64,000 nt of DNA, from the NCBI GenBank assembly GCA_002746255.1, contig NVWO01000001.1, forward strand, positions 97,198 to 161,197, written 5' to 3'. Both the position numbers and the translations under genes were made by a program. The stretch comes from Rhodospirillaceae bacterium. GTDB taxonomy: Bacteria > Pseudomonadota > Alphaproteobacteria > GCA-2746255. The notes beneath the pieces are model-generated. The model saw only the letters and a list, made by a program, of their open reading frames with translations, did no database searches and was not told the origin of the DNA. Shown here in pieces: positions 22,574-45,568 of the stretch. Within the stretch, counting starts at the first letter, position 1, and each line of letters begins with the position of its first letter.

Positions 22574-22649
22574 GTCCCCTTCGTCTAGCGGTCCAGGACA
22601 TCGCCCTCTCACGGCGAAAACAGGGGTTCGATTCCCCTAGGGGATACCA
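22574..22649 (+). tRNA. tRNA-Glu (anticodon CTC)
   Basis: GTCCCCTTCGTCTAGCGGTCCAGGACATCGCCCTCTCACGGCGAAAACAGGGGTTCGATTCCCCTAGGGGATACCA forms a cloverleaf. It has a 7-bp acceptor stem with G1:U72, T-loop TTCGATT, anticodon loop CTCTCAC and an encoded CCA. It is near-identical to enterobacterial tRNA-Glu. Confidence 0.85.
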
Positions 22650-22650
22650 A
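22633..22650. repeat. attL-like 18-bp direct repeat (TCCCCTAGGGGATACCAA) covering the tRNA-Glu 3' end
   Basis: An exact 18-bp copy recurs at 43803-43820. Confidence 0.7.
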
Positions 22651-22696
22651 TTTTCTTATTCGGCGCTTAAGTTCAGTGACTTAGCTATCCAAGACA

Positions 22697-24466
22697 TTGC
22701 CAGCTTCCTGCGTTGTAACAACAACGTGCTACAGCAAGGAGGTTGTCTTGTCCGTGCGAAGCCCTGCACATTTAAAGCACCGAAGTGGCGTCTTCTACTT
22801 TCGCAGAGCCGTTCCAGAGCCGTTCCGTGACATCGTAGGGCGGCGTGAACTCTGTCTTTCGCTGCGGACTCGCGACGTTGCGACCGCTAGACTCCTTTGT
22901 CGATTGTGTTCGAATCTATTCGAGCAATTGATGGAGGCGGTGGACAGGATGCCTGGGCTCGGCAAGAACAAGGTCGATGCGATGATTCGTAGCTACTTCG
23001 AGAGGCTACTCTCGAAGACGGAAGAGATCGTCTTTCTTACGCCACAGGACCCATCGATCGACCCAGAGTTCGAAGCGACCTTAGCTGAGGAGGATAGGCA
23101 GCGCCTCCAGGCTGAATTAGCCAAGGGAAAATTCGATAAAATCACTCTGCTAGAGGCCCAAGAACTAGCCGGCACGGGAGCGAACACGCCCCATAACGTT
23201 TCGGCAGACAAATTCAGGGCAATTTGCAACGGGGTCTTGCGTGCACGAATAGAACAGCGCCGCATATACGTGGCCATGTTGCGCGGTGCGTTTGATGAAG
23301 TGAAATCGAAGGACCCTTTGTTTGATGGCGTAACTTCGACGGGAATGCCGCCTCTTCCCGGGGACGAGCCGGAGCCCAAACAACTTACATTGGAAAACGT
23401 TATCGATAAGTTTTGTGCCATGAAGGAAGTTCAGGACTGGACGTCGAAAACAGCCGACGAGAACCGAAGAATACTGGGGTGGTTCCGCGAACAAATCGGT
23501 CCAACAAAAAACATTAACGATATAAATATCGAAGACGTTCGAGAGTTTAGGGACACGCTCTTCAAACTCCCAAAACACTTCACAAAAACAGTAGCGTTTG
23601 AGGGCATGGGGCTTGCTGAGATTGCGGCGGCCAAACCTGCGGGGGAGAAATTGGGTGCAAGCACATTGCAGAAATATTTTGGCTGTGTGCGCTGGTTTCT
23701 TAGTTGGTGTGGGGACGAGTACGACATTGACACGTCGAAGATGCTGAAGCTCAAGATTGGGCATAAAATCAATAGCTTTGACGCCAGGGAGCCATTTTCC
23801 CACGATCAACTAAAACGGCTTTTTAAATCCCCTCAGTTTACCGGCCATAACTCGCCATCTCACCGGGCAACGCCTGGCAGCCTCCTCATCAAGGACGGTA
23901 AGTTTTGGATACCCCTGATAGGTCTCTACACCGGGATGAGGCTGGGCGAGATTGTCCAACTTCTCGTAACCGATGTGCGCGAAGAAAAGGACGTGCTTCA
24001 CTTCGATGTTAACAAAGGAGAAGGTGACGCCAAGAAGACGCTGAAGACCAAGAGCAGTGTGCGCCGCATTCCTATTCACCCGGACTTAATACGCATGGGG
24101 TTTATGGATCATGTAGCGTTACAGCGACAAAAGAATCCGAAGGGCAGGGTATTTTCCGAGATTAAGACGGGAAAGAATGGCGACCATAGTCACAACATGA
24201 GCAAGTATTTTGGACGCTACCTTAAGCTGGTTGGGGTCAAGACGGGTAAAACGACCTTTCACAGTTTCCGTCACAACTTCGCTGATGCGCTGCGAAATGC
24301 TGAAGCCGAGGACTCGAGGATTAAAGCGCTGATTGGTCATGCCGAAAAAAGCACGACTGGTATCTACGGGGTTGGGGTTTTGCTTAAGGTATTAGCGAAG
24401 GACGTGGAGCGGATTAACTACGATCTCGACTTTTCCCACCTCTTTATCAATGCCAAAGACATTTGA
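22697..24466 (+). CDS. Tyrosine-type site-specific integrase (long N-terminal arm-binding region)
   Basis: N-terminal RSGVFYFRRAVP box typical of island integrases. Catalytic region contains R(LGEI), HSFRH and Y (TTGIYGVG). Adjacent to the tRNA. The exact start codon is uncertain. Confidence 0.85.
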   Translation: MPASCVVTTTCYSKEVVLSVRSPAHLKHRSGVFYFRRAVPEPFRDIVGRRELCLSLRTRDVATARLLCRLCSNLFEQLMEAVDRMPGLGKNKVDAMIRSYFERLLSKTEEIVFLTPQDPSIDPEFEATLAEEDRQRLQAELAKGKFDKITLLEAQELAGTGANTPHNVSADKFRAICNGVLRARIEQRRIYVAMLRGAFDEVKSKDPLFDGVTSTGMPPLPGDEPEPKQLTLENVIDKFCAMKEVQDWTSKTADENRRILGWFREQIGPTKNINDINIEDVREFRDTLFKLPKHFTKTVAFEGMGLAEIAAAKPAGEKLGASTLQKYFGCVRWFLSWCGDEYDIDTSKMLKLKIGHKINSFDAREPFSHDQLKRLFKSPQFTGHNSPSHRATPGSLLIKDGKFWIPLIGLYTGMRLGEIVQLLVTDVREEKDVLHFDVNKGEGDAKKTLKTKSSVRRIPIHPDLIRMGFMDHVALQRQKNPKGRVFSEIKTGKNGDHSHNMSKYFGRYLKLVGVKTGKTTFHSFRHNFADALRNAEAEDSRIKALIGHAEKSTTGIYGVGVLLKVLAKDVERINYDLDFSHLFINAKDI

Positions 24467-24481
24467 GGGATATGCACTTTC

Positions 24482-25570
24482 ATGCCGGTGATCTTCAATT
24501 ACAAAGGTACCCTTCACCCTAACAAGCCCCCCAAGGGAGGGAAGACAAAGTATAAGGTAGATATAAGCGATATAGGGAATAGCTATGAAAGACTGGATGG
24601 TTCCGATGTCCACTTGCTAAGACCCAAGATAGATTATCTAAGCGTAGTCTACGACGTGACTGACAAGGATGATCAGGAAGGCATCGTATCTAACCTCGTC
24701 GGCATTAAGAAAGATGCAGGTGTCCCCTATGCGAAGGACCCACCTAAGTCCTCAAATCTTTTTAAGGGTTACGAGATAGAACTTAGCTTGTTCCATGAGC
24801 CATCCGGGAGCTATATCGACGTTCAGGCTCGTCCTACCTCCAAGAAACAAAAAAAATTCATGCGCTTTCAGTTCATCCCATCGGTTCTGGGGAAGGAAGG
24901 ACTGTCTTTCATGAAAGATGAATTAACCAGTATTTTCAATGACGAGATGGCCTATGAGAAGATTGCGACTCAGGGAAAAGTCACCCGGGTTGATGTTGCC
25001 TGCGACATAATCAATGCTCAGATAAGTGAATTGCTGTTCCGACCGAGGAAGAAGGGTAAGAGGCATGCTTACTACTCTCAAGAAGGGGCCTTGGAGACGA
25101 TCTATATGGGGGTAAAGAAGAAGGACAAGAACAGCGACCTTTATGCCTATGACAAGGCTCTACAGCAGGAAGAGGATGAAATAGGGCAAACCTATCAAGG
25201 CGTCGTGCACACACGAGTAGAGTTCAGGGTCAAAACTCAGGTTCCGATAGTAAAATTGGCGTCGCTTGCCAGCCCACTAAGCAAGCTGGATGTGTTTGAT
25301 TGTGTTGCTGTCGCGCCCCCGGAGAAGGACCATAATTGGTGGCACTTCGTAGACAGTTGCCGTCATAGGGGTATAGACGGGGCGCTGGACATATTGCCGG
25401 ACGGAAAACGCAAACTCTACAAAGCCGCGTTAAATAAATCGCTTCATACGATGTGGAACCCGGAAAAGCTGTGGTCATATTGGCCGGACGTTCTTAAAAA
25501 ATCGGGGCTGCTGGACTTCAAGAAAGAAACTTCATCGTCAGGGCCCGATTGCAATCAATTGCAATATTAG
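24482..25570 (+). CDS. Putative rolling-circle replication-initiator-like protein (Rep_trans/RstA-like)
   Basis: 362 aa. Motifs VTRVDVACDI and TIYMGVKKKDKNSDLYAYDKALQQEED are reminiscent of the Rep_trans family (R.D.A.D ... Y.G.R.S....R.YDK..E). The match rests on remembered motifs only and was not checked by a database search. Confidence 0.4.
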   Translation: MPVIFNYKGTLHPNKPPKGGKTKYKVDISDIGNSYERLDGSDVHLLRPKIDYLSVVYDVTDKDDQEGIVSNLVGIKKDAGVPYAKDPPKSSNLFKGYEIELSLFHEPSGSYIDVQARPTSKKQKKFMRFQFIPSVLGKEGLSFMKDELTSIFNDEMAYEKIATQGKVTRVDVACDIINAQISELLFRPRKKGKRHAYYSQEGALETIYMGVKKKDKNSDLYAYDKALQQEEDEIGQTYQGVVHTRVEFRVKTQVPIVKLASLASPLSKLDVFDCVAVAPPEKDHNWWHFVDSCRHRGIDGALDILPDGKRKLYKAALNKSLHTMWNPEKLWSYWPDVLKKSGLLDFKKETSSSGPDCNQLQY

Positions 25571-25983
25571 AACCGTCCCAGGCTCTACAAACATCATACG
25601 CCATCCGGACACAGCCCCCTTCATGGGTTAGTGGCGAGGCTTTATCTTGCCTTAGAGACCCTATACCTTTGCCCGTGGAGCGGTACGCGCTGCTCTGGGG
25701 CTTTGTAACCCCGTCTATAGCGGTTGGTGCTGACCGTAACAGCGCCACAGTCCTTGACCTCTTTGGTCGGGGAGCCTGTGGCGTATGTCCAGGGCTTCTC
25801 GCCTAAAGGCCATAGGGGCCGCCTATAGACGGTTTACAAACTCCCCGATCACCAGGGATCAAGATGGGACCTACTTGCGGGGGCGTACCGCAAGCTTTGG
25901 TTTCGGGAGTGGTGGCGATGGGTAGAGACGGAACACCAATTTTGGTATCCGGGGGAGATTCAAGAACCCTCAGAAGGCTGCGC

Positions 25984-27114
25984 ATGGATGGCACGGAGAA
26001 CGCGCACAACGAGAAGTGGCTTCAGAAGCTAATTCACCGTCATCCTACATGCATCCCCATGGATCAGATCGAGCCTGGCCTATCGACGCTGGTCCCTGTT
26101 TGCATGGAACTTCCTTTGTCCTGTGGCTTTCTGGACAACCTGCTAATGACCCCCGATGGGGACATCGTAATCATCGAGGCTAAACTTTGGCGCAACCCGG
26201 AAGCTCGCCGTGAAGTCGTCGCGCAGGCTCTTGATTATGCCTCCAGCCTATTTGGCATGGACTACGATTCGCTTGAAAAAGCAGTGCTGAAGGCCGATTT
26301 CGATAACAAGGAGAAGCCTGCTCGCCTGTACGACATATTCAGCGACGCTGACACGCTCGATGAACCGGCCTTTGTCGATGCTGTGACCACCAATCTCAAG
26401 AATGGCCGTATCGTCGTCCTTGTGGCCGGAGACGGGATCAGAACAAGTATCGAGACCCTGATTGACGGGCTCCAGTTACATGCCGGTTTTCACTTCACCT
26501 TCGCCCTCGTCGAGTTGGCGGTATTTCGAGGCATGGATGATGATGATTTTCTCGTCGTGCCGCGCACACTGGCCAAGACATGCATGATCGAGAGGGGCAT
26601 CGTCCGCATAGACAACGGACAGGTTGAGATCGTTCCCGTTCAAGGAAAACCAGAAGTCGCGTCTTCCAGTCGCCTTCAATCTATTAGTTCCGAACAATTC
26701 TACGAAGCCATGAAAGAGAGAGCCTCTGGCCTGCCGGAAAGCTTGAAGGCCTTTGTGGACAAGCTATCGGCTCTGGGCGTCTATCCGGAATTCCAGCGTT
26801 CCCTGAACCTCAAATGGGACCCGCCATCAGGCAAGCCAATTAATCTTGGATACATCAAGCGGACCGGACAATTGTGGACCGATGCAGCCAGTTGGTCTCT
26901 TTCCGATAAAAAACTCGCTCGATCTTACATTGAGGACCTAGCTGAAATATTCGGGGGAGAAATTATGTATATCGGCAAGGACAAAATTCCATATGTCGCT
27001 GTGGAAGGGCATGCTCCGCGTATTGAAACGCTGGTGGACAAATTAGACGTCTGGCATGGGGCAATTGAAAAATTACAAGATCATGTCAGGCAAAATATTT
27101 CCACGGAGGGCTGA
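25984..27114 (+). CDS. NucS/Hjc-type PD-(D/E)xK nuclease-fold protein with ~250-aa C-terminal domain of unknown function
   Basis: GFLDNLLMTPDGDIVIIEAKLWRNPEARREVVAQALDYA matches the D...E.K...Q..Y core of the NucS/DUF91 restriction-endonuclease fold. Track ORF starts at 25864. ATG 25984 has an AGAAGG-like RBS. Confidence 0.5.
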   Translation: MDGTENAHNEKWLQKLIHRHPTCIPMDQIEPGLSTLVPVCMELPLSCGFLDNLLMTPDGDIVIIEAKLWRNPEARREVVAQALDYASSLFGMDYDSLEKAVLKADFDNKEKPARLYDIFSDADTLDEPAFVDAVTTNLKNGRIVVLVAGDGIRTSIETLIDGLQLHAGFHFTFALVELAVFRGMDDDDFLVVPRTLAKTCMIERGIVRIDNGQVEIVPVQGKPEVASSSRLQSISSEQFYEAMKERASGLPESLKAFVDKLSALGVYPEFQRSLNLKWDPPSGKPINLGYIKRTGQLWTDAASWSLSDKKLARSYIEDLAEIFGGEIMYIGKDKIPYVAVEGHAPRIETLVDKLDVWHGAIEKLQDHVRQNISTEG

Positions 27115-27127
27115 TCCAGCCGCAGCA

Positions 27128-27973
27128 ATGTCAATTAAAAAAAGCAGGACAGATGTGGTGAAAACAATTAGAGAGAAAAAAATCGGAAAAGTTACCCTGC
27201 GGCTGGTTGATGCCGGAAAGGCATATGCGGGCATTGTCCTTCAAGAGGGCAAGATAAGCTCGCATGTTGAAGGGGCTGATCCGGAAGATGTTTGGCAAAA
27301 ACTAGAAGCCAGCGCCGCAAGGAGCAGTCCAAACTACTTCGGGTTTGAAGCTGCAAAAAACCGCTTTCTGTCTTTCTTTCCAGACGGGTTTGCGTCTGAA
27401 CATTACCTGAGCAAGGAACGTCAATATAAGCTTCAAGCCAAAGAATTGCTGGATAACACAGTGCCTCTTGATGCGGCATTAAATAGCTCAGGTCATGGTG
27501 AGGCCATAAGGGCCGTTTTCAATAAAACAAACCTAATATCGCCATTCGAGAAGATGCGATTGAATGACGCTCTGCTTAGTGACCAGGCAGATCAATTTAT
27601 CAACGGTGCTGCCCGAATGGCATCGGGGGAGATAAAAAATGGTCTGCGTGAAATGGAGAAATCTCTGAAGCCACATGATGTAGCTAAATGGACTGTTGTC
27701 ACGTACCTGCCATTTTTATGGAATCCAACAAAACATATGTTTTTGAAACCGACAATCACCAAAGATTTTTCGGAACGGATAGGCCATCCTTTTTTCAATA
27801 ATTATGAAGCCAAGCTTGATATTGGGGTTTATGAGAGCTTGCTTGATTTGGTTGATAAGACCGAACAGAAAATTTCCGGCCTTGGTCCACAAGACCGAAT
27901 TGATACTCAGAGTTTTATTTGGATCGTTGGGGCATATGATATGGAAGTCGATGTGTCAGAGGTTCACGCATAA
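27128..27973 (+). CDS. Hypothetical protein (middle gene of the nuclease-ExoI operon)
   Basis: A 282-aa ORF starting 13 nt after the preceding stop. No motif recognised. Track ORF 27056 overlaps the previous gene, so the ATG at 27128 is preferred. Confidence 0.4.
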   Translation: MSIKKSRTDVVKTIREKKIGKVTLRLVDAGKAYAGIVLQEGKISSHVEGADPEDVWQKLEASAARSSPNYFGFEAAKNRFLSFFPDGFASEHYLSKERQYKLQAKELLDNTVPLDAALNSSGHGEAIRAVFNKTNLISPFEKMRLNDALLSDQADQFINGAARMASGEIKNGLREMEKSLKPHDVAKWTVVTYLPFLWNPTKHMFLKPTITKDFSERIGHPFFNNYEAKLDIGVYESLLDLVDKTEQKISGLGPQDRIDTQSFIWIVGAYDMEVDVSEVHA

Positions 27974-27979
27974 TCTGAT

Positions 27980-29350
27980 ATGACATTTATTTTCTACGAT
28001 ACGGAAACAACGGGGCTGTCGGCGGGCTTCGATCAAATTCTTCAATTCGCGGCGCTTGTAACCGATGACGATTTCAACGTTATCGAGGAAGTAAATCTGC
28101 GCTGCCGGTTGCAATCCCATGTAGTGCCATCGCCAGGGGCCCTCTTGGTTACGGGTGTGCGCCCGTCAGATATCCAAGGGGCCAATCTGTCCCACTATCA
28201 GATGGTCCGGAAAATTCGGAACGTGATTGAGCAGCACACGCCGGCCGTAATTGTTGGATACAACAGCATCAGTTACGACGAAAGCATGCTACGTCAGGCA
28301 TTTTACCAGACGCTCAATCCCGTCTACCTCACCAATATGAACGGCAACACCCGCATGGATATGTTGCGCGTCGCTCATGCCGTCTCAGAATATGCACCGG
28401 ACGTTTTGCAGATACCCTTGAACGATAAGGGGCGACCAAGTTTCAAGCTGGGTCTTCTTGCTGCCGCTAACGGCCTTGTTCACGAAGACGCCCATGAAGC
28501 CATGTCGGACACCTTGGTGACGCTTGGCCTGGCCAGGCTGGTGCGGGCAAAGGCACCAAAAATATGGGAGGCCATGTATGCGACGCGGGCCAAGCGCTCG
28601 GTACAGGGTTTTATGGCCGATACGGACGTCTTTTGTTTCACGGACAAGATGTTCAAGCAATCCTCGGTCCTTGCAACCCAGATAGCGCCCAGTCCGGAAA
28701 ATTCATCTCAAGTTGCAGTCTTCGATCTCTCCCACGATCCTGTCCACTATCTGGACATATCGAAAAAAGACATGGTGAGTTTGCTGCGAACAACTCCCCG
28801 CCCGATCCGCGTTGTTAAGGCCAACCAGCAACCCATCCTTGCTTCCTATGAGTTCAGCCATGTAGGGGTCGCGGGACATGACCTGCCAATTTACCAATTG
28901 CAAGAGAGGGCGCGTCAGGTAAAAGAGCACCCGACCTTCGCCGACAACGTGGCCCATGCCATTGCCAATCGTTATCCTGAGCGGGAGCCCTCCAAGCTTG
29001 TGGAAGAGCAGATTTACAATGCTTTTCCGAGTTGGTCGGATCAAAAACTGATGGAGCAATTTCACCAGCAGCCTTGGGAAGAGCGACTGGGGACCGTTTT
29101 ACAATTGACGGACGATCGATTGGGGGAGCTCGGGGAACGTCTGATCTATACGGAGCGTCCGGATGCATTGCCGGAGGACGTGATCCTTCGTCGTGATAGG
29201 TGGCGGCACGAACGAATTCATGCCGAACAGTCAGTGCAATGGGTGACTGCGGGGTCAGCGCTGGAAGAAGTCGAGTCACTCAGGACAAAGGGTTCAGGGA
29301 AGCACGAGGATTTGTTCCAAGACATTGAAATGTTCCTTGGAAAGTTGTGA
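27980..29350 (+). CDS. sbcB: Exonuclease I (SbcB) homolog, DEDDh 3'-5' ssDNA exonuclease
   Basis: Collinear with E. coli ExoI over the full length. FIFYDTETTG aligns to FLFHDYETFG (Exo I). QFAALVTDDDFNVI aligns to QFAAIRTDSEFNVI. GYNSISYDE is Exo II. RPSFKLGLLAAANGLVHEDAHEAMSD aligns to LPSFRLEHLTKANGIEHSNAHDAMAD (Exo III, H and D). Size 456 aa versus 475 aa. Confidence 0.8.
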   Translation: MTFIFYDTETTGLSAGFDQILQFAALVTDDDFNVIEEVNLRCRLQSHVVPSPGALLVTGVRPSDIQGANLSHYQMVRKIRNVIEQHTPAVIVGYNSISYDESMLRQAFYQTLNPVYLTNMNGNTRMDMLRVAHAVSEYAPDVLQIPLNDKGRPSFKLGLLAAANGLVHEDAHEAMSDTLVTLGLARLVRAKAPKIWEAMYATRAKRSVQGFMADTDVFCFTDKMFKQSSVLATQIAPSPENSSQVAVFDLSHDPVHYLDISKKDMVSLLRTTPRPIRVVKANQQPILASYEFSHVGVAGHDLPIYQLQERARQVKEHPTFADNVAHAIANRYPEREPSKLVEEQIYNAFPSWSDQKLMEQFHQQPWEERLGTVLQLTDDRLGELGERLIYTERPDALPEDVILRRDRWRHERIHAEQSVQWVTAGSALEEVESLRTKGSGKHEDLFQDIEMFLGKL

Positions 29351-29908: not shown

Positions 29909-31012
29909 ATGAACGGAACCCATATTCTTGATCACTATCGGTCCCAGCTTGCCGACCAAGTTCTGAAGCGCGGCACGGATATTCCCAACTTCAATCCATT
30001 GGAAATCTCTCCGTGGTTAGCGATGAGCCTGATGCAAAAAGCTATCCGCAGAGGTCGGGTGGATTTTGCCCTTCGGAGTGCTGCAACACTTCTTAAAATT
30101 TCACCTGAACGACTTTGGCGGAGACTTGGCGTCACTGCATTTGAAGACATCGGCGTTGGTAACTTGGAAGTTGTTTCGCTGGTTACAGTGGCTTTGGCAG
30201 GAAAGCGATACCGCGCCAAGATTGGTGGGGAGTGGGCTGTTGCCTCCTATCTGATCGGCATCATGTGCGAAGCAAACAAATGCAGGGCAGCGGATGATCT
30301 TGCCGTTGTTTGTGACTGGCACCCAGATTACGAACAACCGCGCCTGGAATTGACCTACAAGCCGATGCTGGAATTATTGAAGGTAGTAGAGGGTGCAGGC
30401 TCCATACCCGAAAAGTCTTTGGCAACATGGTATGCCCTGGGGACTGACCGTTGCCGCTCTCCCGTATTGCGGGAACGACGCGGCGACCCTCAAGCGGTGT
30501 TTAATTATTTATGTGAGGCTGGGTTCCCTGACACCGTGGTGGAAATCGCCCGAGAGGGTTTCAGAAAAGGTAGCGGTGTTCTGGCGGCATTCATGGTCTT
30601 GCTAGCGCAGGCATCGCAACAATCCGTTCATTATGCAAAATCGGATGATTTTCCAGAAGAGGGAATGATTGGAGACGTTCCTGGGTGGGCTTTCGACATG
30701 CATGTCCGCGAAGGCAATGCGGCCATGAGCCGGTTCCTCAAAACGGATTGCGAAACAGTCCGTTGGATTGACGACGTTTTGCCCCCTACCGGTCGGACGA
30801 AGTTTCTCGGCGGTGTCTTGTTCCGGATTGAGAGTGGGCTTGTTTCAAGCAGGCACCGTTGGAAAGTCGGGGACGATTTGCGCCGCATGTCTGATTTTGA
30901 ATGCGAGGCTCTGAGACACAAGAGGATCGGGGAAGTCATGACGCTGCTTCGTGCAGATATGCCTATTCTCAACGAAGCCCGGCGAATGGTCGTTTCCGGG
31001 ATGGGGAAATGA
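29909..31012 (+). CDS. Hypothetical protein translationally coupled to a tyrosine recombinase
   Basis: Strong RBS AGGAGGAGAAGACGATG. 367 aa. No recognised motif. Its stop overlaps the start of the next gene (ATGA). Confidence 0.5.
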   Translation: MNGTHILDHYRSQLADQVLKRGTDIPNFNPLEISPWLAMSLMQKAIRRGRVDFALRSAATLLKISPERLWRRLGVTAFEDIGVGNLEVVSLVTVALAGKRYRAKIGGEWAVASYLIGIMCEANKCRAADDLAVVCDWHPDYEQPRLELTYKPMLELLKVVEGAGSIPEKSLATWYALGTDRCRSPVLRERRGDPQAVFNYLCEAGFPDTVVEIAREGFRKGSGVLAAFMVLLAQASQQSVHYAKSDDFPEEGMIGDVPGWAFDMHVREGNAAMSRFLKTDCETVRWIDDVLPPTGRTKFLGGVLFRIESGLVSSRHRWKVGDDLRRMSDFECEALRHKRIGEVMTLLRADMPILNEARRMVVSGMGK

Positions 31013-32010
31013 CCATGTATGCGAACAAACGACAGGCAGCCAATGAGACGCCTCTAACCTCTGATAACACCCACTTATCGGAGCCCATAACAACCGCCCT
31101 GGATGGCGGTGCAATTAACTGCACACAAGCTACGTCAGGCTATGTGCGGGCGGCCATCGCTGATAATACGCGACGAGCCTATCGCGCCGACTTAAATCAC
31201 TTCCTGGAATGGGGAGGCGCTATACCTGCAACGGACGTGATGGTTGCCGATTACCTCGCTGTTCATGCGGGGGCGTTGGCAGTTTCAACCTTGTGCCGGC
31301 GTATTGCATCAATTGCAAAGGCACACAGGGCAAGGGGCCTGCAAAGCCCGACTGTCTCTGACCTGATCAAGGCCACCATGCGGGGCATCAAACGCACTCA
31401 CGGGGCTCCCCAGCGCGGCTCAGCGCCCCTTCTTATCGAGGACCTTCTCCGGATCATGAGCGTTCTTGGAGACGGCATGAAAGACACCCGGGACCGGGCG
31501 TTGTTGTTGCTCGGCTTTGCTGGTGGGTTCAGGCGGTCCGAACTCGTTGCGCTCGACGTTGAAGACATCCAGTCCGTTCGCCAGGGAATGATCGTCACCA
31601 TCAAACGATCCAAAACGGATCAGGCTGGTGTGGGGCGGCAGATAGGTGTTCCGTTTGCGCGCGGTCGGTTCTGCCCGGTTAAGTCTGTGGAGGCGTGGTT
31701 GCAAGTCGCGGGCATATCCGATGGCCCTGTTTTTCGTTCCGTGGACCGGTACGGGCGGGTTGGAACGCAAAGACTATCAAGTGAGGCCGTCGCCAATGTG
31801 ATCAAGGCCAGGGTCGAGCAAGTTGGCTTCGACCCAACGCTCTATTCTGGCCATAGCCTGCGGGCGGGCCTTGCTACCAGTGCGGCGATGGCAGGGGTTA
31901 GCTCCCTCGATATCCGAAAACAGACCGGCCATGCATCGGACGCAATGCTTGCGCGGTACGTACGGTCCGGAGAGTTGTTTGTGAATAATGCCTCTGGGGC
32001 TTTATTGTAA
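31009..32010 (+). CDS. Tyrosine recombinase/integrase (XerC/D-like, SAM-like N-domain)
   Basis: Catalytic motifs R (GFRRSELVAL), HSLRAG and RY (MLARYVRSG). Start ATG at 31009 overlaps the upstream stop. Track ORF 30901 is too long. Confidence 0.8.
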   Translation: MTMYANKRQAANETPLTSDNTHLSEPITTALDGGAINCTQATSGYVRAAIADNTRRAYRADLNHFLEWGGAIPATDVMVADYLAVHAGALAVSTLCRRIASIAKAHRARGLQSPTVSDLIKATMRGIKRTHGAPQRGSAPLLIEDLLRIMSVLGDGMKDTRDRALLLLGFAGGFRRSELVALDVEDIQSVRQGMIVTIKRSKTDQAGVGRQIGVPFARGRFCPVKSVEAWLQVAGISDGPVFRSVDRYGRVGTQRLSSEAVANVIKARVEQVGFDPTLYSGHSLRAGLATSAAMAGVSSLDIRKQTGHASDAMLARYVRSGELFVNNASGALL

Positions 32011-32188: not shown

Positions 32189-32656
32189 ATGTCTCTCAAG
32201 AATGTCGTCGCAAGGCAATATCAGGAAAAGGTGGACCGGGCAGCGCAGGCTGCGCGCCAGGTCGGCATGCCCGCAGAGGGGTGGATATGCACGGTACGAA
32301 AAGCGCTGAATATGTCTGCCGCAGAGCTGGCGCGGCGGCTTGGTAAAAGTCGAGCGCTCGTATCCAAGACCGAAAAAGCCGAGCTTGATGGCGGCGTGAC
32401 GTTGAAAACCATGAAGGGCATGGCCGAGGCCATGGGGTGCCGGTTTGTCTACGCCATCGTGCCTGATAAGAGCATTGAGGACCTTCTAGCGGCGCAGGCC
32501 AGCAAGAAGGCGTGTCTGCTTGTCGAAAAATCAGGCCAACACATGGCGCTGGAAGCACAAAATCTGACGCCGGAACAAATGGACGCAGAGGAAAAGCGCA
32601 TCGCTCAAGAACTCATGCGCGATATGCCTTCGGATTTCTGGAGGGATAGATCATGA
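32189..32656 (+). CDS. XRE-family HTH protein (mobile mystery protein A-like, probable antitoxin/regulator of Fic)
   Basis: HTH_3-like segment MSAAELARRLGKSRALVSKTE. 155 aa. 4-nt overlap with the downstream Fic gene. Confidence 0.65.
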   Translation: MSLKNVVARQYQEKVDRAAQAARQVGMPAEGWICTVRKALNMSAAELARRLGKSRALVSKTEKAELDGGVTLKTMKGMAEAMGCRFVYAIVPDKSIEDLLAAQASKKACLLVEKSGQHMALEAQNLTPEQMDAEEKRIAQELMRDMPSDFWRDRS

Positions 32657-33240
32657 AAATGGATTATCCAGAAGGGGCGACGCCGCTTGATCCGGACGAA
32701 ATGGAAGGTCTGAAATTCAAGCACGTGACGACCAGGGGAGAGCTTGACCAATTGGAGCAGGCCAATATTCAGAACGGCCTCGTTTGGTTATCACACAGCC
32801 GGGAAAAAGATATCTTGAGCGAAGCGTTTGTTCGCAAGCTTCACGAGCAGCTCTTTGGCGAGGTCTGGAAATGGGCAGGCTCTTTCAGGCGCACCGGAAA
32901 GAATATCGGTGTTGATCCGCTGGCCATTAGCGTTGAGCTGCGGACACTTCTGGATGATATGCGCTATTGGGCTGAGCACGATACCTATCCGGAGATGGAA
33001 GCTGCTATTCGGTTCCATCACCGACTCGTTTTCATTCATCCGTTTCCCGACGGCAATGGCCGTCATGCCCGGATCATGACCGACGCTGTTTTGCAAAAGA
33101 TATTCGATAAAGAACCCATTGACTGGTCGGGTGGTCATGATCTTCAGGCCATGAACGAACGCCGAACCGAATACATTGTCGCTTTGAGGGCTGCTGATCG
33201 TGGTGACTATGTTCCAATCTTCAAGTTTGCAAGGTTGTAG
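32653..33240 (+). CDS. Fic/DOC family protein (mobile mystery protein B-like)
   Basis: Canonical Fic motif HPFPDGNGRHAR (HxFx(D/E)GNGRxxR). 195 aa. Confidence 0.85.
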   Translation: MKMDYPEGATPLDPDEMEGLKFKHVTTRGELDQLEQANIQNGLVWLSHSREKDILSEAFVRKLHEQLFGEVWKWAGSFRRTGKNIGVDPLAISVELRTLLDDMRYWAEHDTYPEMEAAIRFHHRLVFIHPFPDGNGRHARIMTDAVLQKIFDKEPIDWSGGHDLQAMNERRTEYIVALRAADRGDYVPIFKFARL

Positions 33241-35439: not shown

Positions 35440-36743
35440 GTTTTCCGCGTTACCCGGCCTACAAGGACAGCGGCGTGGAATGGCTGGGGGACGTGCCGGG
35501 GCAATGGGAGGTGGTGCCACTTAAGTATATTTCCACTCACAACGACGATGTGCTTGTTGAAAGCACTGACCCGAACAACGAGATTACCTATGTAGATATT
35601 TCCAGCGTGGACGGGGTGAACGGAATCGCTACGAAAGAAACAATGTCATTCTCAGCTGCTCCTTCAAGGGCACGGCGGCGCGTTAGGCATGGCGATGTGA
35701 TCGTCTCAACGGTTCGCACTTATCTCAAGGCAATTGCCGTAGTTCGTGACCCAGAAGACAGCCTCATTGTCTCGACTGGTTTTGCTGTAATACGACCGCG
35801 AGATGAACTTACACCTAACTATTTAGGTTTTTTGGTTTTCGCTAGTTACTTTGTCGAACAGATCATCGTCCGCTCAAAGGGCGTGAGTTACCCCGCAATC
35901 AACGCCGGTGAACTCGTCGCTATTTCGGTGCCACTTCCTTCACCCCCCGAACAAACCGCCATCGCTGCCTTCCTGGACCGCGAAACGGCAAAGATCGATG
36001 GGCTGGTGGCTGAGCAGCGGCGGCTGATTGACCTGCTGAAAGAAAAACGCCACACCGTCATCTCCCACGCCGTCACCAAAGGCCTGAACCCCGATGCCCC
36101 GATGAAGCCTTCCGGTATAGAATGGCTGGGGGACGTGCCGGAGCATTGGGAACTTCGAAAACTCTCGCAGTTATTTCGCGCAGGAAAAGGTAAGAACGGA
36201 CAAAAACTAACGAAGGAATATTGCGCCGCCAATGAAGGTGAATATCCGGTTTATAGTGGCCAGACTGAAAACGAAGGCGTCATGGGTACATGGGATCAGT
36301 TTGAATTTGACTTCGAAGATACGGGTGTTTTGTTTTCGACGACTGTTGGCGCGAAGGCCATGAATCTGCAGCAACTTTTTGGACGGTTCAGTCTGTCGCA
36401 AAACTGTATGATCATTTGGCCGACGTCGAGCCGATGCATTACGCGGTTTTTCTTTTACCACCTCCAGCCATTGTTTCGGTATCAGCGAGCCATGATTCCT
36501 GATCACATGCAGGCGTCTTTTAGGGTGGAAGATTTGTACGGATATTTCATTGCATTACCGCCAAGCGAAGAACAAACCGCCATCGCCGCCTTCCTCGACC
36601 GCGAAACGGCAAAGCTCGATGAGCTAATAGACGAAGCTCAACGCGCTGTGGATCTGCTGCAAGAACGCCGGACCGCGCTAATTTCTGCCGCCGTCACCGG
36701 CAAGATTGATGTTCGCGGGCTTGCCGATATGGAGGCCGCATGA
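35436..36743 (+). CDS. hsdS: Type I R-M specificity subunit HsdS (two TRDs)
   Basis: Two target-recognition domains separated by conserved repeats ([29 protein letters not shown] and [29 protein letters not shown]). ATGA overlaps on both sides. Confidence 0.85.
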
Positions 36744-37714
36744 TTGCCAAGCTTGAACGTGTGCCACTTCGGGAAGTCTGGAAGCATGAGGCTTATGACT
36801 TCACCCAGTGGCTTGAAGAAAACATCGACATTCTGAGCGAAGCGATAGACTTGACGCTTGTTAATGCCGAACGAGAAAAGAAAACAGAGAGTAGTTTCAG
36901 TGTTGATCTGGTCGCGGAAGATGAAAGCGGCGCGACCGTTATCATTGAGAACCAGCTAGAGAAGAGCAATCACGACCACCTCGGCAAGCTAATTACTTAT
37001 TTGACGGCGATGCAGGCTCGCACCGCGATTTGGATTGTCTCAGAACCTCGCCCGGAGCATGTGGCCGCAATCGTATGGCTGAACGAGTCTTCCAGTGCCG
37101 ATTTCTACTTACTAAAGATCGAGGCGATCCGTATCGGGGATTCGGCTCCCGCGCCTCTGCTGACGGTGATTGTAGGTCCGTCAGAAGAAGGTAAATCCGT
37201 GGGCCGTAGAAAGCAGGAGAGCGGCGAGCGTTATGACATCCGTCATCGATTCTGGTCACAACTGGTCCAGCACCCGAACGCCAAACTGCACAAACACATC
37301 ACACCGGGTAAGTACGCCTGGATCGGGCTCGGATCAGGAATGCGAGGGGTCGGGTTCAACTACGCAACCACCAAAGAACAATCGGGCGCCGAGGTCTACA
37401 TAGACCGGGGCAAGGAGTTGCGTGACGAAAATCTTGCGATCTTCGACCAGTTTCACGCGAAGAAAGACGAAATTGAGAAAGCTTTTGGCGGTCCATTGAG
37501 CTGGGAACGACTGGAAGGAAGACGAGCGTGCCAGATTCGTGCGCGTGTTGATGGCGGATACCGTAATCCAGAGGAACAGTGGAACGAAATCCACGGACGA
37601 ATGACGGATGCCATGAACAGGCTCGTTGACACGATCAGGCCGCAACTGAGGCACCTTCGAATTAAAAGTTCGTTGGAAAATGTTGGGTCCGAAGGTGCCA
37701 AACTATCGCCATGA
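36740..37714 (+). CDS. NucS-like PD-(D/E)xK / DUF4268-type protein embedded between hsdS and hsdR
   Basis: N-terminus LREVWKHEAYDFTQWL...VDLVAEDESGATVIIENQLEKSNHDHLGKLITY is the (D)...ENQ...HDHLG signature of a family often found inside type I R-M operons. ATGA-coupled to both neighbours. Confidence 0.6.
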   Translation: MIAKLERVPLREVWKHEAYDFTQWLEENIDILSEAIDLTLVNAEREKKTESSFSVDLVAEDESGATVIIENQLEKSNHDHLGKLITYLTAMQARTAIWIVSEPRPEHVAAIVWLNESSSADFYLLKIEAIRIGDSAPAPLLTVIVGPSEEGKSVGRRKQESGERYDIRHRFWSQLVQHPNAKLHKHITPGKYAWIGLGSGMRGVGFNYATTKEQSGAEVYIDRGKELRDENLAIFDQFHAKKDEIEKAFGGPLSWERLEGRRACQIRARVDGGYRNPEEQWNEIHGRMTDAMNRLVDTIRPQLRHLRIKSSLENVGSEGAKLSP

Positions 37715-40824: not shown

Positions 40825-40947
40825 CCTGTCTGACGCCCGGTATTCCAAGTCTATGAAAAAGACCCTGCAAAAGTTCGCAGCCGCTCATGCCTTGATCCAC
40901 AATCATTTCAACCACGACTGCTGCCTCAACCGCCGCGATATTTTCAA

Positions 40948-41047
40948 GCAGAACCGTTCTGCCGCTCTGGCCGAATGGCGTCAATTGGCGGCCTGAAAGC
41001 GAGGTTGCCTGGCGTTTATGAGGCTTGTTTAATTATGCTGACAGCAT
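40948..41047. repeat. Right copy of ~100-bp imperfect direct repeat flanking the type I R-M cassette
   Basis: See 33491-33600. Begins inside the last codons of hsdR and extends about 220 nt into the downstream intergenic region. Confidence 0.6.
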
Positions 41048-41243: not shown

Positions 41244-42344
41244 ATGAAATTTTTCACGAAAGACGAAATGGCGAAGTCTGAAAGACTTCGCCTAAAGCAA
41301 GAACGGAAGGGCTTTCTCCGGAAGCTAACTGTTGAAGAGCATGAAAATCTAAAGAACCAACTGATACTACGCTCGCATCATCAAATTTCTGCCAGCTTGG
41401 TGCCACAGAAAAACCGAGTGTCTATTGAGTTGCCGAAGGAAATCTCACTGGCAAACAACTACGAACCTACAATCAAATTTATAAACCAACTGCGGAATAC
41501 TGTCTTGACCAAGCGGCTTCCAGTTTTTCTGCATTTTGATAATGTTGCATCAGTTAGTCCAGCCGCGGCACTTCTTATGACCGCTGAAATATATAGGTGT
41601 AGAAATCTGCGACCCGGCCGTGCAGGATTGGTGCCCGTTAACGGAAATTGGCCTTCAGACAAAAAGGCTCGCAAAGTCCTTAGTGATATGGGCTTTTACA
41701 AGCTCATGCAGCTGCCAAACAACCTTTCTGTTCTGAATGCAAAAGAGATGGACAATACAATCCATTTAGGCTTTGCCACATTTAACCACGTAGATGCAGA
41801 ACAAATAGCCTTTTTTCATCACAATCTATTAGAAAAAATCGATTTCAATCTAACAAATATGGAAAGCAAAAGGCTTCAAGGTGCAATAATTGAAGCCATC
41901 GGGAATGCATCGGAGCACGCCTATAAAATTAAAACAGAGCATCAATTTTTAAGTAATAGGTCGTGGATATCAGGATACGTTGATGTTCCAAATAAAGAGC
42001 TTATGTTCATGGTGTTAGATCAAGGCGTAGGTATCCCGAAGACACTTGATCCCACCCTTATTGAACGAGCGTTATCGATCGGAAAGTTTCGTGGCTCGAC
42101 GCCAACAGATTCTGAATTGATTGAACGTGCAGCTGAGTTTCGACGGACATCAACAGGGAATAGCGGTAGAGGAAAAGGTGTTGAGACGATGAAGCGTTTT
42201 ATTCGCACCATCGACGATGGCGAACTCAAGATATTTAGCAATCGTGGCCTTTATAGATATTCGTCTGCTGGAGCCGAGACTAGGGATGATCACGATGGAT
42301 CAATTGGCGGAACGTTAGTACAATGGCGACTGCATCAGCAATAA
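41244..42344 (+). CDS. GHKL-superfamily ATPase (histidine-kinase-like ATPase domain without HisKA), unknown N-terminal domain
   Basis: C-terminal Bergerat-fold motifs: N-box EAIGNASEHAY, G1 VLDQGVGIP, G2 GNSGRGKGV. No phospho-acceptor His box was recognised. 366 aa. Confidence 0.6.
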   Translation: MKFFTKDEMAKSERLRLKQERKGFLRKLTVEEHENLKNQLILRSHHQISASLVPQKNRVSIELPKEISLANNYEPTIKFINQLRNTVLTKRLPVFLHFDNVASVSPAAALLMTAEIYRCRNLRPGRAGLVPVNGNWPSDKKARKVLSDMGFYKLMQLPNNLSVLNAKEMDNTIHLGFATFNHVDAEQIAFFHHNLLEKIDFNLTNMESKRLQGAIIEAIGNASEHAYKIKTEHQFLSNRSWISGYVDVPNKELMFMVLDQGVGIPKTLDPTLIERALSIGKFRGSTPTDSELIERAAEFRRTSTGNSGRGKGVETMKRFIRTIDDGELKIFSNRGLYRYSSAGAETRDDHDGSIGGTLVQWRLHQQ

Positions 42345-42379
42345 TGAATTCTGATAGACTCTAAGTTGGATGTGAACGG

Positions 42380-42709
42380 GTGGATAGCAATAGACATTTG
42401 ATATCGGTGCCCAAAGATTTTTCAAAAACGCCGGGCACAAGATATATTAAGCAAGGGCCGTGCAGCGGTGAAAAATTCAGGACGTCTTGTCTGATTCCTG
42501 CGCTTGAAAAATACGACTTGTTGATTGTCGATCTAGACGGCACTGCCGGCTACGGTTCATCTTTCATTGATGAAGCATTTGGGGGGCTGATCCGAAGAGA
42601 AGGATTCAATGCTGAAGATTTATTGCGCCGTATAAAAATCAAATCGGACGAGGAAATCGAACTCATAGCCGATGTGAAAAAGGCTTTCCGTGATGCTCGG
42701 CCGAATTAG
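42380..42709 (+). CDS. STAS-like (DUF4325-type, anti-sigma-antagonist-like) small protein
   Basis: 109 aa. The segment KYDLLIVDLDGTAGYGSSFIDEAFGGLI resembles STAS/SpoIIAA-like DUF4325 proteins that pair with GHKL ATPases. This is a similarity judgement, not a search result. Confidence 0.45.
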   Translation: MDSNRHLISVPKDFSKTPGTRYIKQGPCSGEKFRTSCLIPALEKYDLLIVDLDGTAGYGSSFIDEAFGGLIRREGFNAEDLLRRIKIKSDEEIELIADVKKAFRDARPN

Positions 42710-42714
42710 ACGAT

Positions 42715-43263
42715 ATGCACAGGTCATCTGTTAGAAAACCAGAAGAACGTGTTCAGAATGTTTATAAGTGCTGTAGCGGCAAGTCGGATGGCGGCGATAT
42801 CTGGGGGGCAATTCTGCCAACGGCAATGGCGGGTGTTGGATTCTACGTTTTCCATAAATTAGCCATGCGTAGACAAAAACGGGCCGAAGTTTTCGATACT
42901 TTTCGTGACCTAAAAATGATCATTGACGATATAGACCACTTGGCGACCATTGCATGGCGAAAAACAGGGGGCGACGCGGTAAAAGATGGTGGAGTTGTGG
43001 AAATTCGCCGGAAAATTGCGCGTTGTCGAGAAGATCTCAGGCTACTAACTATGTTGGATGAGAAATTTGAAGTAGTAGCTAATCCGCTGAATGATTATAG
43101 AAGGGCGATTGACGAAGAATTAGACGATTCAGGAAACGCATTGTCCACTATCGATGACATCAATCGGTTGGGCCGGCTTGATTGGGCTATAGAAGGGATA
43201 ATGCCAAAAGCAACGGCCCTAAGGCTTAATTTAAATAAAGCCATCGCTAATATTTATGGCTGA
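42715..43263 (+). CDS. Hypothetical protein with one TM helix (third gene of the GHKL operon)
   Basis: Starts 6 nt after the STAS-like ORF. Predicted helix ILPTAMAGVGFYVFHKLAM. No motif recognised. Confidence 0.4.
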   Translation: MHRSSVRKPEERVQNVYKCCSGKSDGGDIWGAILPTAMAGVGFYVFHKLAMRRQKRAEVFDTFRDLKMIIDDIDHLATIAWRKTGGDAVKDGGVVEIRRKIARCREDLRLLTMLDEKFEVVANPLNDYRRAIDEELDDSGNALSTIDDINRLGRLDWAIEGIMPKATALRLNLNKAIANIYG

Positions 43264-43332: not shown

Positions 43333-43563
43333 TCAGGCAGAGAAGCAAGATGAGCGGAGTGGGTGACCCGAGTGCGATGATTCAAGGCACCCGCTCTTGC
43401 TGTGCATGAAGCTTAAACTTCGGGTCACCTCATCTATCCTCGGATAATTTCTGCGAACTCTCATGCGGGCCAGTTGGCATTTCACATTAACCGGATAGCC
43501 CCGGTCGGTGATCTGAAGAACCGCGTCCCGTTTGAAATCGTCGCTGAAATGGACTTTGCCCAT
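43333..43563 (-). pseudogene. Fragment of an IS3-family transposase OrfA (N-terminal ~30 aa recognisable)
   Basis: KVHFSDDFKRDAVLQITDRGYPVNV resembles the IS3/IS911 OrfA N-terminus (FSxEFKREAV..V...GYSV). Similarity is lost after about 30 aa. Lies about 240 nt inside the island right end. Confidence 0.3.
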
Positions 43564-44728: not shown

Positions 44729-45568
44729 TTATCGCGCTTTAGCTAACGATGCGATTAAGGCGGGGGAGCGTCCGGCAATGGTAGTGCTTTGATTAAATGT
44801 CGCTTTATTGATTGCTCGAATGTGGCTGTCTTCTGTGATCTCAACCAACTTTTCTTTACCGCTAAATGAGTCGTGTGCAACTACTACGTCGTGAGCAATC
44901 GGAAACCATATCGAGTCAGCGGTGCGCGAGCGACTAGGAGACGTTGGCTTTACAATTGGGTTGCTTCCGATAACGAAGCTCTTTTCCGGCTTCTGGATTA
45001 TTGTAGTGACGAGTCCTTTGCTCTGAAACATTTGCAACACCTCTTCACCCAGTCTTGCAATGGCCTGCACCTTGGCATTCTGTATAAGCCTGTCTAGTGT
45101 TTTCTGGGAATGTAGCTTAGCGTGCTCGTCGATAGTGAGCGGCCTCGTTGCTTCGAAGTTTTCTAATTTAGTATGAATAAGTTTCTGGAATTGTTCAGGG
45201 CCAAAAACGTTGTTATGCATATCCGGCACACGCTTCCACTGGTAGTAAAAAAACCGGTCCCAATTTGATTTTTCAATAGGTGTTAAATCAGGTAATTCTC
45301 GGGTTCGCGCCGCCCCCAATATTTTCCTGATTATCGTGTCCGCCGTTCCTTCAAGGTCAGCAAACATCTTTTCAAGGGAAGTGTCCTTATCTCCATCCTC
45401 ATAGTGCTGGGTGTAAAGATTACCTACGACAAAAATATTCTTTGGGGTGACAGGTTGAACCCCTTTTTCCGGGAAGCGCTTGTCAAAAAAGTATAGTTTC
45501 CCATTTTCATCCGTGAACCGGCGTGACAGCATTTGCGCAATAAAATGGTTGCGTTTTGGCTCATTCAT
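44729..45568 (-). CDS. DUF4238-like protein
   Basis: N-terminus KRNHFIAQMLSRRFTDENGKLYFFDK resembles the DUF4238 signature (K.HH.VPQ.YL..F....G.lyvyDK). The family is common in accessory and defence islands. 279 aa. Confidence 0.5.
   Translation of the reverse strand: MNEPKRNHFIAQMLSRRFTDENGKLYFFDKRFPEKGVQPVTPKNIFVVGNLYTQHYEDGDKDTSLEKMFADLEGTADTIIRKILGAARTRELPDLTPIEKSNWDRFFYYQWKRVPDMHNNVFGPEQFQKLIHTKLENFEATRPLTIDEHAKLHSQKTLDRLIQNAKVQAIARLGEEVLQMFQSKGLVTTIIQKPEKSFVIGSNPIVKPTSPSRSRTADSIWFPIAHDVVVAHDSFSGKEKLVEITEDSHIRAINKATFNQSTTIAGRSPALIASLAKAR

Follow-up and report, generated by a model that had tools for sequence, protein, structure and literature searches.

A 64,000-nucleotide stretch of a Rhodospirillaceae bacterium genome (contig NVWO01000001.1, positions 97,198 to 161,197; hereafter the window) carries a cassette of three genes, here named K, S, and T, which encode a predicted STAS-GHKL serine kinase, a small STAS-like protein, and a predicted single-pass membrane protein. 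Our analysis shows that K-S-T is a tight, conserved, and mobile three-gene module. By analogy with the CapK/CapS and VapK/VapS proteins of the CapKS and VapKSC systems described by Chambers et al. (EMBO J 2026; PMC13373217), we favor, at somewhat less than even confidence, the reading that it is a self-contained mobile module of the same type, most likely serving as an abortive-infection or exclusion system.

Linkage and distribution of the K-S-T module

A genome scan recovered 70 K loci, mostly from alpha-, beta-, and gammaproteobacteria. S directly follows K in 67 of these, the remaining three being cut by contig ends, and T follows S in 64 of the 67, which argues that the arrangement is not due to chance. 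Among 50 viral contigs with K in IMG/VR, S is the next gene in 49 and T is present in 46. The same three genes are found in the two closest relatives, Hwanghaeella and a TARA metagenome contig, in Vibrio relatives (~29% identity over half the protein), and in Marinobacter phage AS1, and relatives of K were located on four plasmids. An exhaustive profile search with K returned 5846 cluster representatives at E<=1e-3 and 2085 at E<=1e-30, the latter number indicating that the kinase family is large.

In the window, the three open reading frames (ORFs) lie on the same strand at 41244-42344, 42380-42709, and 42715-43263, with gaps of 35 nt between K and S and 5 nt between S and T. Features of the cassette are as follows, with structural confidence given as the predicted local distance difference test (pLDDT):

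41244..42344, + strand: K, STAS-GHKL serine-kinase-like protein, 366 aa
41259..41384, + strand: K residues 6-47, long Arg/Lys-rich N-terminal helix (model block pLDDT 87-96; R-rich family consensus)
41415..41783, + strand: K residues 58-180, internal STAS domain, mostly without a phosphorylatable serine
41796..42341, + strand: K residues 185-366, Bergerat-fold (GHKL) ATP-binding kinase domain (invariant motifs; SpoIIAB profile match)
42380..42709, + strand: S, DUF4325 STAS-like protein, 109 aa, GTG start, Ser61 codon at 42560-42562 (Pfam)
42715..43263, + strand: T, single-pass membrane protein, 182 aa, of an unannotated family (iterative hidden Markov model, HMM)
42799..42867, + strand: T residues 29-51, predicted membrane helix, followed by RRQKR (hydropathy)

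Composition of the K, S, and T proteins

A preliminary description of this DNA, made from its letters and ORF translations, had recognized the three-ORF cluster at exactly these coordinates, and much of what it said of the proteins is borne out. It read the first ORF as a Bergerat-fold protein without a histidine phospho-acceptor domain: the quoted motifs EAIGNASEHAY, LDQGVGIP, and GRGKG are all present in K, and no HisKA domain was found by Pfam. Residues E217, N221, H225, D259, G261, G263, G310, G312, G356, and T357 are invariant in a 32-member alignment, which allows the boxes to be assigned as N-box E217/N221/H225, G1 D259xGxG, G2 G310xG312, and G3 G356-T357. The Pfam HATPase_c match itself (E=8e-5, 23.5 bits) falls under the gathering score of 26.4. 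The N-terminal ~220 aa, which the description left as a region of unknown nature, can be further resolved: a confident AlphaFold2 (AF2) model (pLDDT 87, predicted template modeling score 0.86) divides K into a helix at residues 6-47, an alpha/beta domain at ~58-180, and the GHKL domain at ~185-366. The kinase domain is nearest in fold to SpoIIAB and RsbW, and the K family profile matches SpoIIAB in the PDB (E=0.002). In this model, a basic helix at the N-terminus is followed by a STAS domain and then by a kinase domain of the SpoIIAB/RsbW type; K is an ATP-binding serine kinase of this type, fused to a STAS domain and with predicted kinase activity. Other searches added little: single-sequence PDB searches with K and with S returned nothing useful, NCBIfam gave hints of SpoIIAB/RsbW that were below threshold, and a BFVD fold search yielded generic GHKL matches and one 233-aa unnamed protein.

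The internal STAS domain of K mostly has Ala where S has its conserved serine, in an alignment that is short and not significant (hhalign of the K internal STAS domain against the S family, 1.9% probability); if this alignment holds, the internal domain is probably not itself a substrate. At the position corresponding to the N-terminal helix of K, CapK carries a helix-turn-helix (HTH) domain (PMC13373217). K also has a conserved R-W-W motif at residues 239-241 (41958-41966), 18-20 residues past the N-box Asn, in which W241 is nearly invariant. This segment is absent from SpoIIAB and from the Deinococcus VapK-like protein described below, and it lies roughly where the predicted contacts of CapK lysines with single-stranded DNA (ssDNA) are placed (CapK N218; K237/K239), a rough positional match only (PMC13373217).

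S had been described as STAS/DUF4325-like, and it passes the gathering threshold of Pfam DUF4325 (E=2.7e-14, 53 bits, cut-off 23); its counterparts in phage AS1, Vibrio, and Deinococcus likewise belong to DUF4325. Across 42 S homologs, S61, E65, G69, R34, and G30 are invariant and S60 is nearly so, with the motif GYGSSFxxEAFGG. The S family profile aligns, in two weak matches, with PDB 9Z7O chain A ("Escherichia VapS", E=0.23) and with the STAS protein 3T6O (E=0.51). In the former profile alignment, at the E-value given, Ser61 of S is paired with Ser66 of chain 9z7o_A, which we take to be Ser48 of native VapS, counting the 134-residue chain against the 116-residue protein (an 18-residue tag). 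Ser48 has been shown experimentally to be the phospho-acceptor of VapS (PMC13373217). S consists of the DUF4325 domain and a short tail, with ~35 aa beyond the STAS core; as it has no winged HTH (wHTH) domain, it cannot be a DNA-binding repressor of the CapS type. S also matches the phage family profile phrog_5816 (function unknown), but only over the last ~100 of its 441 positions, a hint that in some phages DUF4325 forms the end of a longer protein, possibly a kinase-STAS fusion.

The third ORF is, as first described, a small membrane protein. T has one predicted hydrophobic helix at ~aa 29-51, with its hydropathy maximum at residue 29, followed by RRQKR. Members of the T family share a short N-terminus, one hydrophobic helix, a basic juxtamembrane stretch, and an all-helical domain of ~110 aa with an R-x-A-x-T/S motif. 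The basic stretch adjoining the membrane is conserved, and the helix has a conserved small residue at G42 (G, A, or S in 98 of 109 sequences). Since the basic stretch comes after the helix, the positive-inside rule predicts the helical domain to be cytoplasmic, on the same side as K and S.

The T family is fast-evolving and unannotated. Word-indexed homolog searches with T returned only itself, or three relatives when a profile was used as the query, whereas an iterative HMM seeded with the T of the window gathers 56 of 56 third-position ORFs and only 4 of ~1200 other ORFs. No convincing match for T was found in Pfam, PDB, PADLOC, or PHROG; the T profile returned only noise against Pfam and PDB, such as cytochrome b562-like helices and Vpu, and neither a PIN domain nor any other convincing Pfam match was detected in T and 58 further third-position proteins. 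An AF2 model of T, built from four sequences, is all-alpha and of low confidence (pLDDT 53).

The closest characterized counterpart of K-S is found in VapKSC, in which VapK is a STAS-GHKL protein, VapS a STAS antitoxin, and VapC a PIN toxin (PMC13373217). The phosphomimetic VapS variant S48E no longer binds or neutralizes VapC, and the vapKSC operon gave ~2 logs of protection against one phage (PMC13373217). A VapS fragment led us to a Deinococcus plasmid operon with the vapKSC architecture (HTH, ATP-binding, DUF4325, and PIN proteins). By hhalign, the K family aligns with the Deinococcus kinase at 95.1% probability (E=3e-8) over 265 columns across both domains, and the S family aligns with the Deinococcus STAS protein at 91.7% probability (E=8e-7). 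These links identify K-S as a remote homolog of VapK-VapS and, relative to VapKSC, the third gene appears from sequence comparison to have been swapped for an unrelated membrane protein.

Genomic neighborhood and the tRNA-Glu island

Neighbors of the module were surveyed in 116 upstream and 120 downstream ORFs (236 in total), and all families present in at least two loci were listed. The recurrent neighbors are integrases, HTH/S24 repressors, and type I restriction-modification (R-M) genes. The same description placed the module away from any sigma factor, and no sigma-70/ECF family was present in at least two loci among the flanking ORFs; consistently adjacent sigma factors, which it had named as an outcome that would count against it, were not seen, and the other such outcome, a second ORF without a STAS fold, is not borne out either, S being a genuine DUF4325 protein. 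Likewise, no SpoIIE/PP2C family reached two loci, a threshold at which a single occurrence is possible. Genes beyond T are not conserved, and some loci are flanked by housekeeping genes only. Redundant type I R-M models overwhelmed the PADLOC summary of neighbors, and no quantities were drawn from it.

In Vibrio, the islands carrying the module (L071-L074) adjoin the housekeeping rpoD-dnaG operon at the island edge, and in L071 an integrase lies between the module and rpoD. This adjacency could be misread as tying the module to a sigma factor.

These data bear on whether K-S-T could be a housekeeping partner-switching or stress-signaling module, or a CapKS-type regulator of neighboring genes, unrelated to phage defense. 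Its fold family is that of the stress-response partner switches, some of its loci have housekeeping neighbors only, and CapKS does regulate transcription (PMC13373217). Against this, no sigma factor, PP2C, or other neighbor is conserved, S is a protein of 109 aa without a wHTH DNA-binding domain, and the module is found in phages, plasmids, and islands, with low GC content and insertion sequence (IS) debris on both sides in the window. We regard this explanation as highly improbable, the least likely of those considered here. Domain content and neighborhood led us to reject the CapKS-type and sigma-factor readings.

In viral contigs, cI-like repressor genes are often found upstream of the module. 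Among 85 upstream ORFs scanned in IMG/VR (at most two per locus), Peptidase_S24 was found 17 times, HTH_3 13 times, and Phage_CI_repr 6 times, and in phage AS1 the order is cro followed by the divergent genes cI-K-S-T. In lambda, the slot after cI is occupied by rexAB. The common position of the module directly downstream of prophage cI-like repressors, together with the small, predicted inner-membrane nature of T, would suit superinfection exclusion, in which T would block phage DNA entry or another envelope step in the manner of small prophage inner-membrane superinfection exclusion (Sie) proteins, with K-S only tuning T and no cell death. However, known Sie proteins act without a kinase, the larger part of T is predicted to lie in the cytoplasm, and the module is equally common outside prophages, beside R-M genes and in integrative islands; we consider superinfection exclusion of this kind very unlikely.

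Type I R-M genes are directly upstream of and co-oriented with the module in 5 of 71 loci (the window, L013, L041, L044, and L049), with genes overlapping in two of them, and a type I R-M system lies no more than 7 kb away in each of the two closest relatives. The preliminary description had put the cassette immediately downstream of a type I R-M cassette. It does lie downstream, but the two are not operonic in the window: hsdR and K are 419 nt apart, and the gap contains the tail of an IS6 transposase gene. Direct coupling, with R-M genes that overlap or nearly abut the module, does occur in other genomes. Promoter and terminator scans around the cassette performed no better than on shuffled sequence. 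The boundaries of the cassette are marked by two transposase remnants:

40847..40993, + strand: IS6-family transposase gene tail between hsdR and K, upstream boundary (tblastn; 58-63% identity to C-termini of annotated IS6 transposases)
43333..43563, - strand: IS3-family transposase fragment just 3' of T, downstream boundary (tblastn; 79% identity over the first 24 aa to IS3 family transposases)

Being bracketed by these remnants, K-S-T was evidently acquired separately from the adjoining R-M genes. The GC content of the cassette is 42-46%, compared with ~53-58% for the neighboring R-M genes.

The cassette is held in a low-GC island of ~23 kb (about 23-46 kb of the window) that begins at a tRNA-Glu gene. 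The tRNA gene is directly followed by a DUF6538-type tyrosine integrase, with a second integrase 6.4 kb further in (22574-24466 and 30901-32010), and the low-GC region resembles a composite built from two or more integrative elements. Other features of the island include the following:

27980-29350: SbcB-like exonuclease (PADLOC DRT-associated "RTasSbcB" model, 7e-100)
32189-33240: HTH and Fic/DOC proteins, overlapping genes, just upstream of the R-M operon (Fic matches PDC-S04 and SoFic)
36740-37714: DUF4268 protein between hsdS and hsdR of the type I R-M operon, start/stop overlapping both neighbors (PADLOC candidate PDC-S11, 6e-137)
44729-45568, - strand: DUF4238 protein, 1.5 kb downstream of the cassette (Pfam 1.9e-23; no PADLOC v2 match)

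The three ORFs before the SbcB-like gene (24482-25570, 25864-27114, and 27056-27973) have no Pfam match, and one has a weak N-terminal match to PDC-S11; the segment 24482-29350, near the inner side of the island edge, may be an uncharacterized defense operon. Proteins with DUF4238 have been reported as candidates for single-gene defense. The region of the window holding the cassette is a defense island adjoining tRNA-Glu.

Proposed mechanism and comparison with known systems

By analogy with VapKSC, we propose that in the uninfected cell unphosphorylated S would hold T inactive. An infection-linked (or DNA-damage) signal, which in the case of CapK and VapK is ssDNA, would activate K; K would then phosphorylate S at Ser61, freeing T from inhibition, and T would oligomerize or otherwise perturb the inner membrane such that cell growth and phage replication stop. 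As the module contains no phosphatase, a one-way trigger fits better than a reversible regulatory switch. Stated in full, K-S-T would be a widespread and undescribed anti-phage abortive-infection or exclusion system in which a signal-activated STAS-GHKL kinase gates a new single-pass membrane effector by phosphorylation of its STAS partner, and possibly of a Thr in the effector; it would occupy a rexAB-like slot behind cI in prophages and serve beside R-M as a second line triggered by DNA breakdown products. We advance this fuller scheme tentatively, with slightly less assurance than the assignment of the module to the CapK/CapS-VapK/VapS type. The preliminary description had suggested RsbW/RsbV-style partner switching, and this interpretation is supported with refinements: classical switching is putative here, and the characterized relatives of K-S-T use phosphorylation-triggered release of the partner of the STAS protein.

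Several considerations weigh against this proposal. The homology of K and S to VapK and VapS is remote (15-24% identity; PDB profile match at E=0.23). PADLOC-DB v2.0.0 has no model for any of the three proteins, K and S having no match at E<=1 and T a single spurious match (E=0.007). The toxicity of T, the phosphorylation of S, and protection against phages are properties that we infer by analogy. As T is unrelated to VapC, any contact between S and T would need to have arisen independently. The T of the window is only moderately hydrophobic (1.33). Activation of CapK and VapK by ssDNA needs a conserved aromatic residue (CapK W68 / VapK F54) in the STAS-GHKL groove (PMC13373217); such a residue was not located in K, and the alignment with the Deinococcus VapK-like protein shows no conserved aromatic opposite its W53, so that the trigger of K may differ from that of CapK/VapK. 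Two further points, the co-variation of T with K and an Asp at a conserved site in the T of the window, each bear on an alternative wiring.

In a mirror-tree analysis of 107 distinct triples, divergence of T correlates better with that of K (r=0.84) than with that of S (r=0.67), a comparison confounded by differences in evolutionary rate, as S is less divergent and short. When K was subsampled to the length of S the correlation was still 0.78, and the partial correlations were 0.27 for ST|K and 0.58 for KT|S. This is a weak hint that K rather than S may be the hub of the module. Such a result would be compatible with an anti-sigma-like wiring in which K sequesters the cytoplasmic domain of T, as SpoIIAB and RsbW do their sigma factor, unphosphorylated S displaces T, K inactivates S by phosphorylation, and T is freed when ATP falls or K is inhibited during infection. 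The kinase domain of K is indeed nearest in fold to SpoIIAB and RsbW, and its N-terminal helix and STAS domain are possible docking surfaces. However, the only characterized homologous systems, CapKS and VapKSC, change S binding by phosphorylation, and the kinase does not sequester the target (PMC13373217); in addition, the module lacks a phosphatase that could regenerate S, and the mirror-tree signal has the confounding already noted, even if it survives length matching. We consider this wiring unlikely.

The most conserved position of the T family, within the R-x-A-x-T motif, is Thr or Ser in 97 of 109 sequences. This conservation, the strong co-variation of K and T, and the invariance of all K catalytic motifs would be compatible with K itself being the effector, in which case activated K would phosphorylate host or phage proteins, possibly including the Thr/Ser of T, with S as a pseudo-substrate or regulator and T as a membrane anchor or infection sensor. 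The T of the window, however, has Asp at this site (D133, codon 43111-43113), as do L128, L129, and L004, which with it make up all four members of the clade. The Asp may mimic phosphorylation at a former phospho-site, or it may merely provide another N-cap for the helix. All three residues (Thr, Ser, and Asp) are typical of helix N-caps, and the pattern is accounted for just as well by a structural role; moreover, SpoIIAB-type kinases are known as dedicated STAS kinases, and the invariant Ser61 points to S as the substrate. A kinase effector is therefore quite unlikely in our estimation, and gating of T through phosphorylation of S remains the reading we prefer.

Although the preliminary description could assign no named system, named relatives do exist in CapKS and VapKSC (PMC13373217); K-S-T itself fits neither. 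Literature searches on DUF4325 returned incidental mentions only, and those combining partner switching with phage defense returned none. The DefensePredictor paper contains HATPase in a figure legend only. A membrane-protein variant is not mentioned in the account of CapKS and VapKSC (PMC13373217).

The closest likeness is to VapKSC. Both are three-gene operons of the same order, K has STAS and GHKL domains without an HTH, and S, a small STAS protein of the DUF4325 type, ends in a short extension beyond the STAS core and has its conserved serine at the matching position; both systems are on mobile elements and near defense genes. Unlike VapKSC, the third gene encodes a single-pass membrane protein and not a PIN nuclease, and K has an extra basic N-terminal helix of ~45 aa. 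In CapKS, CapK is an ssDNA-activated kinase of HTH, STAS, and GHKL domains, CapS is a STAS-wHTH repressor, and the pair controls CBASS, Bub, Thoeris, and other downstream immune operons by de-repression; capKS lies directly downstream of an R-M system in 88 of 443 loci (PMC13373217). K-S-T shares with CapKS the order of a STAS-GHKL kinase gene and a STAS substrate gene, with R-M upstream in some loci, but the N-terminus of K is a single long helix with no HTH, S is without a wHTH, and the gene after S is T (in the great majority of both genome and viral loci) rather than a variable immune operon. As the third gene differs from that of VapKSC and the HTH and wHTH of CapKS are lacking, K-S-T should not be filed as either.

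K-S-T also differs from the SpoIIAB-SpoIIAA and RsbW-RsbV pairs: no sigma factor or PP2C phosphatase recurs near K-S-T, K is fused to its own STAS domain, and the module is mobile and includes a membrane protein. The resemblance to lambda RexA-RexB is one of function and position only. In many prophages and in AS1 the K-S-T genes are co-oriented and directly downstream of a repressor, and in both systems a membrane protein would work together with cytoplasmic components that sense or regulate; no similarity in sequence or fold was found, and T has one membrane helix whereas RexB has four.

CapKS and VapKSC established that an anti-sigma-type kinase and its STAS substrate can act as a portable DNA-damage sensor in immunity, controlling either transcription or a nuclease toxin (PMC13373217). 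If our proposal is correct, K-S-T adds a third output to this type of sensor, a membrane protein of a family without annotation. The module would then represent both a new membrane effector and an exclusion system commonly encoded by prophages, and could serve as a three-protein model for the phosphorylation gating of a membrane toxin and as a means of testing whether restriction hands off to abortive infection, as has been proposed. The kinase family is carried by temperate phages directly behind the repressor gene, by plasmids, and by R-M-linked islands. Taken together, the description that suits K-S-T best is that of a new and widespread version of the kinase-STAS immune module with a novel putative membrane effector.

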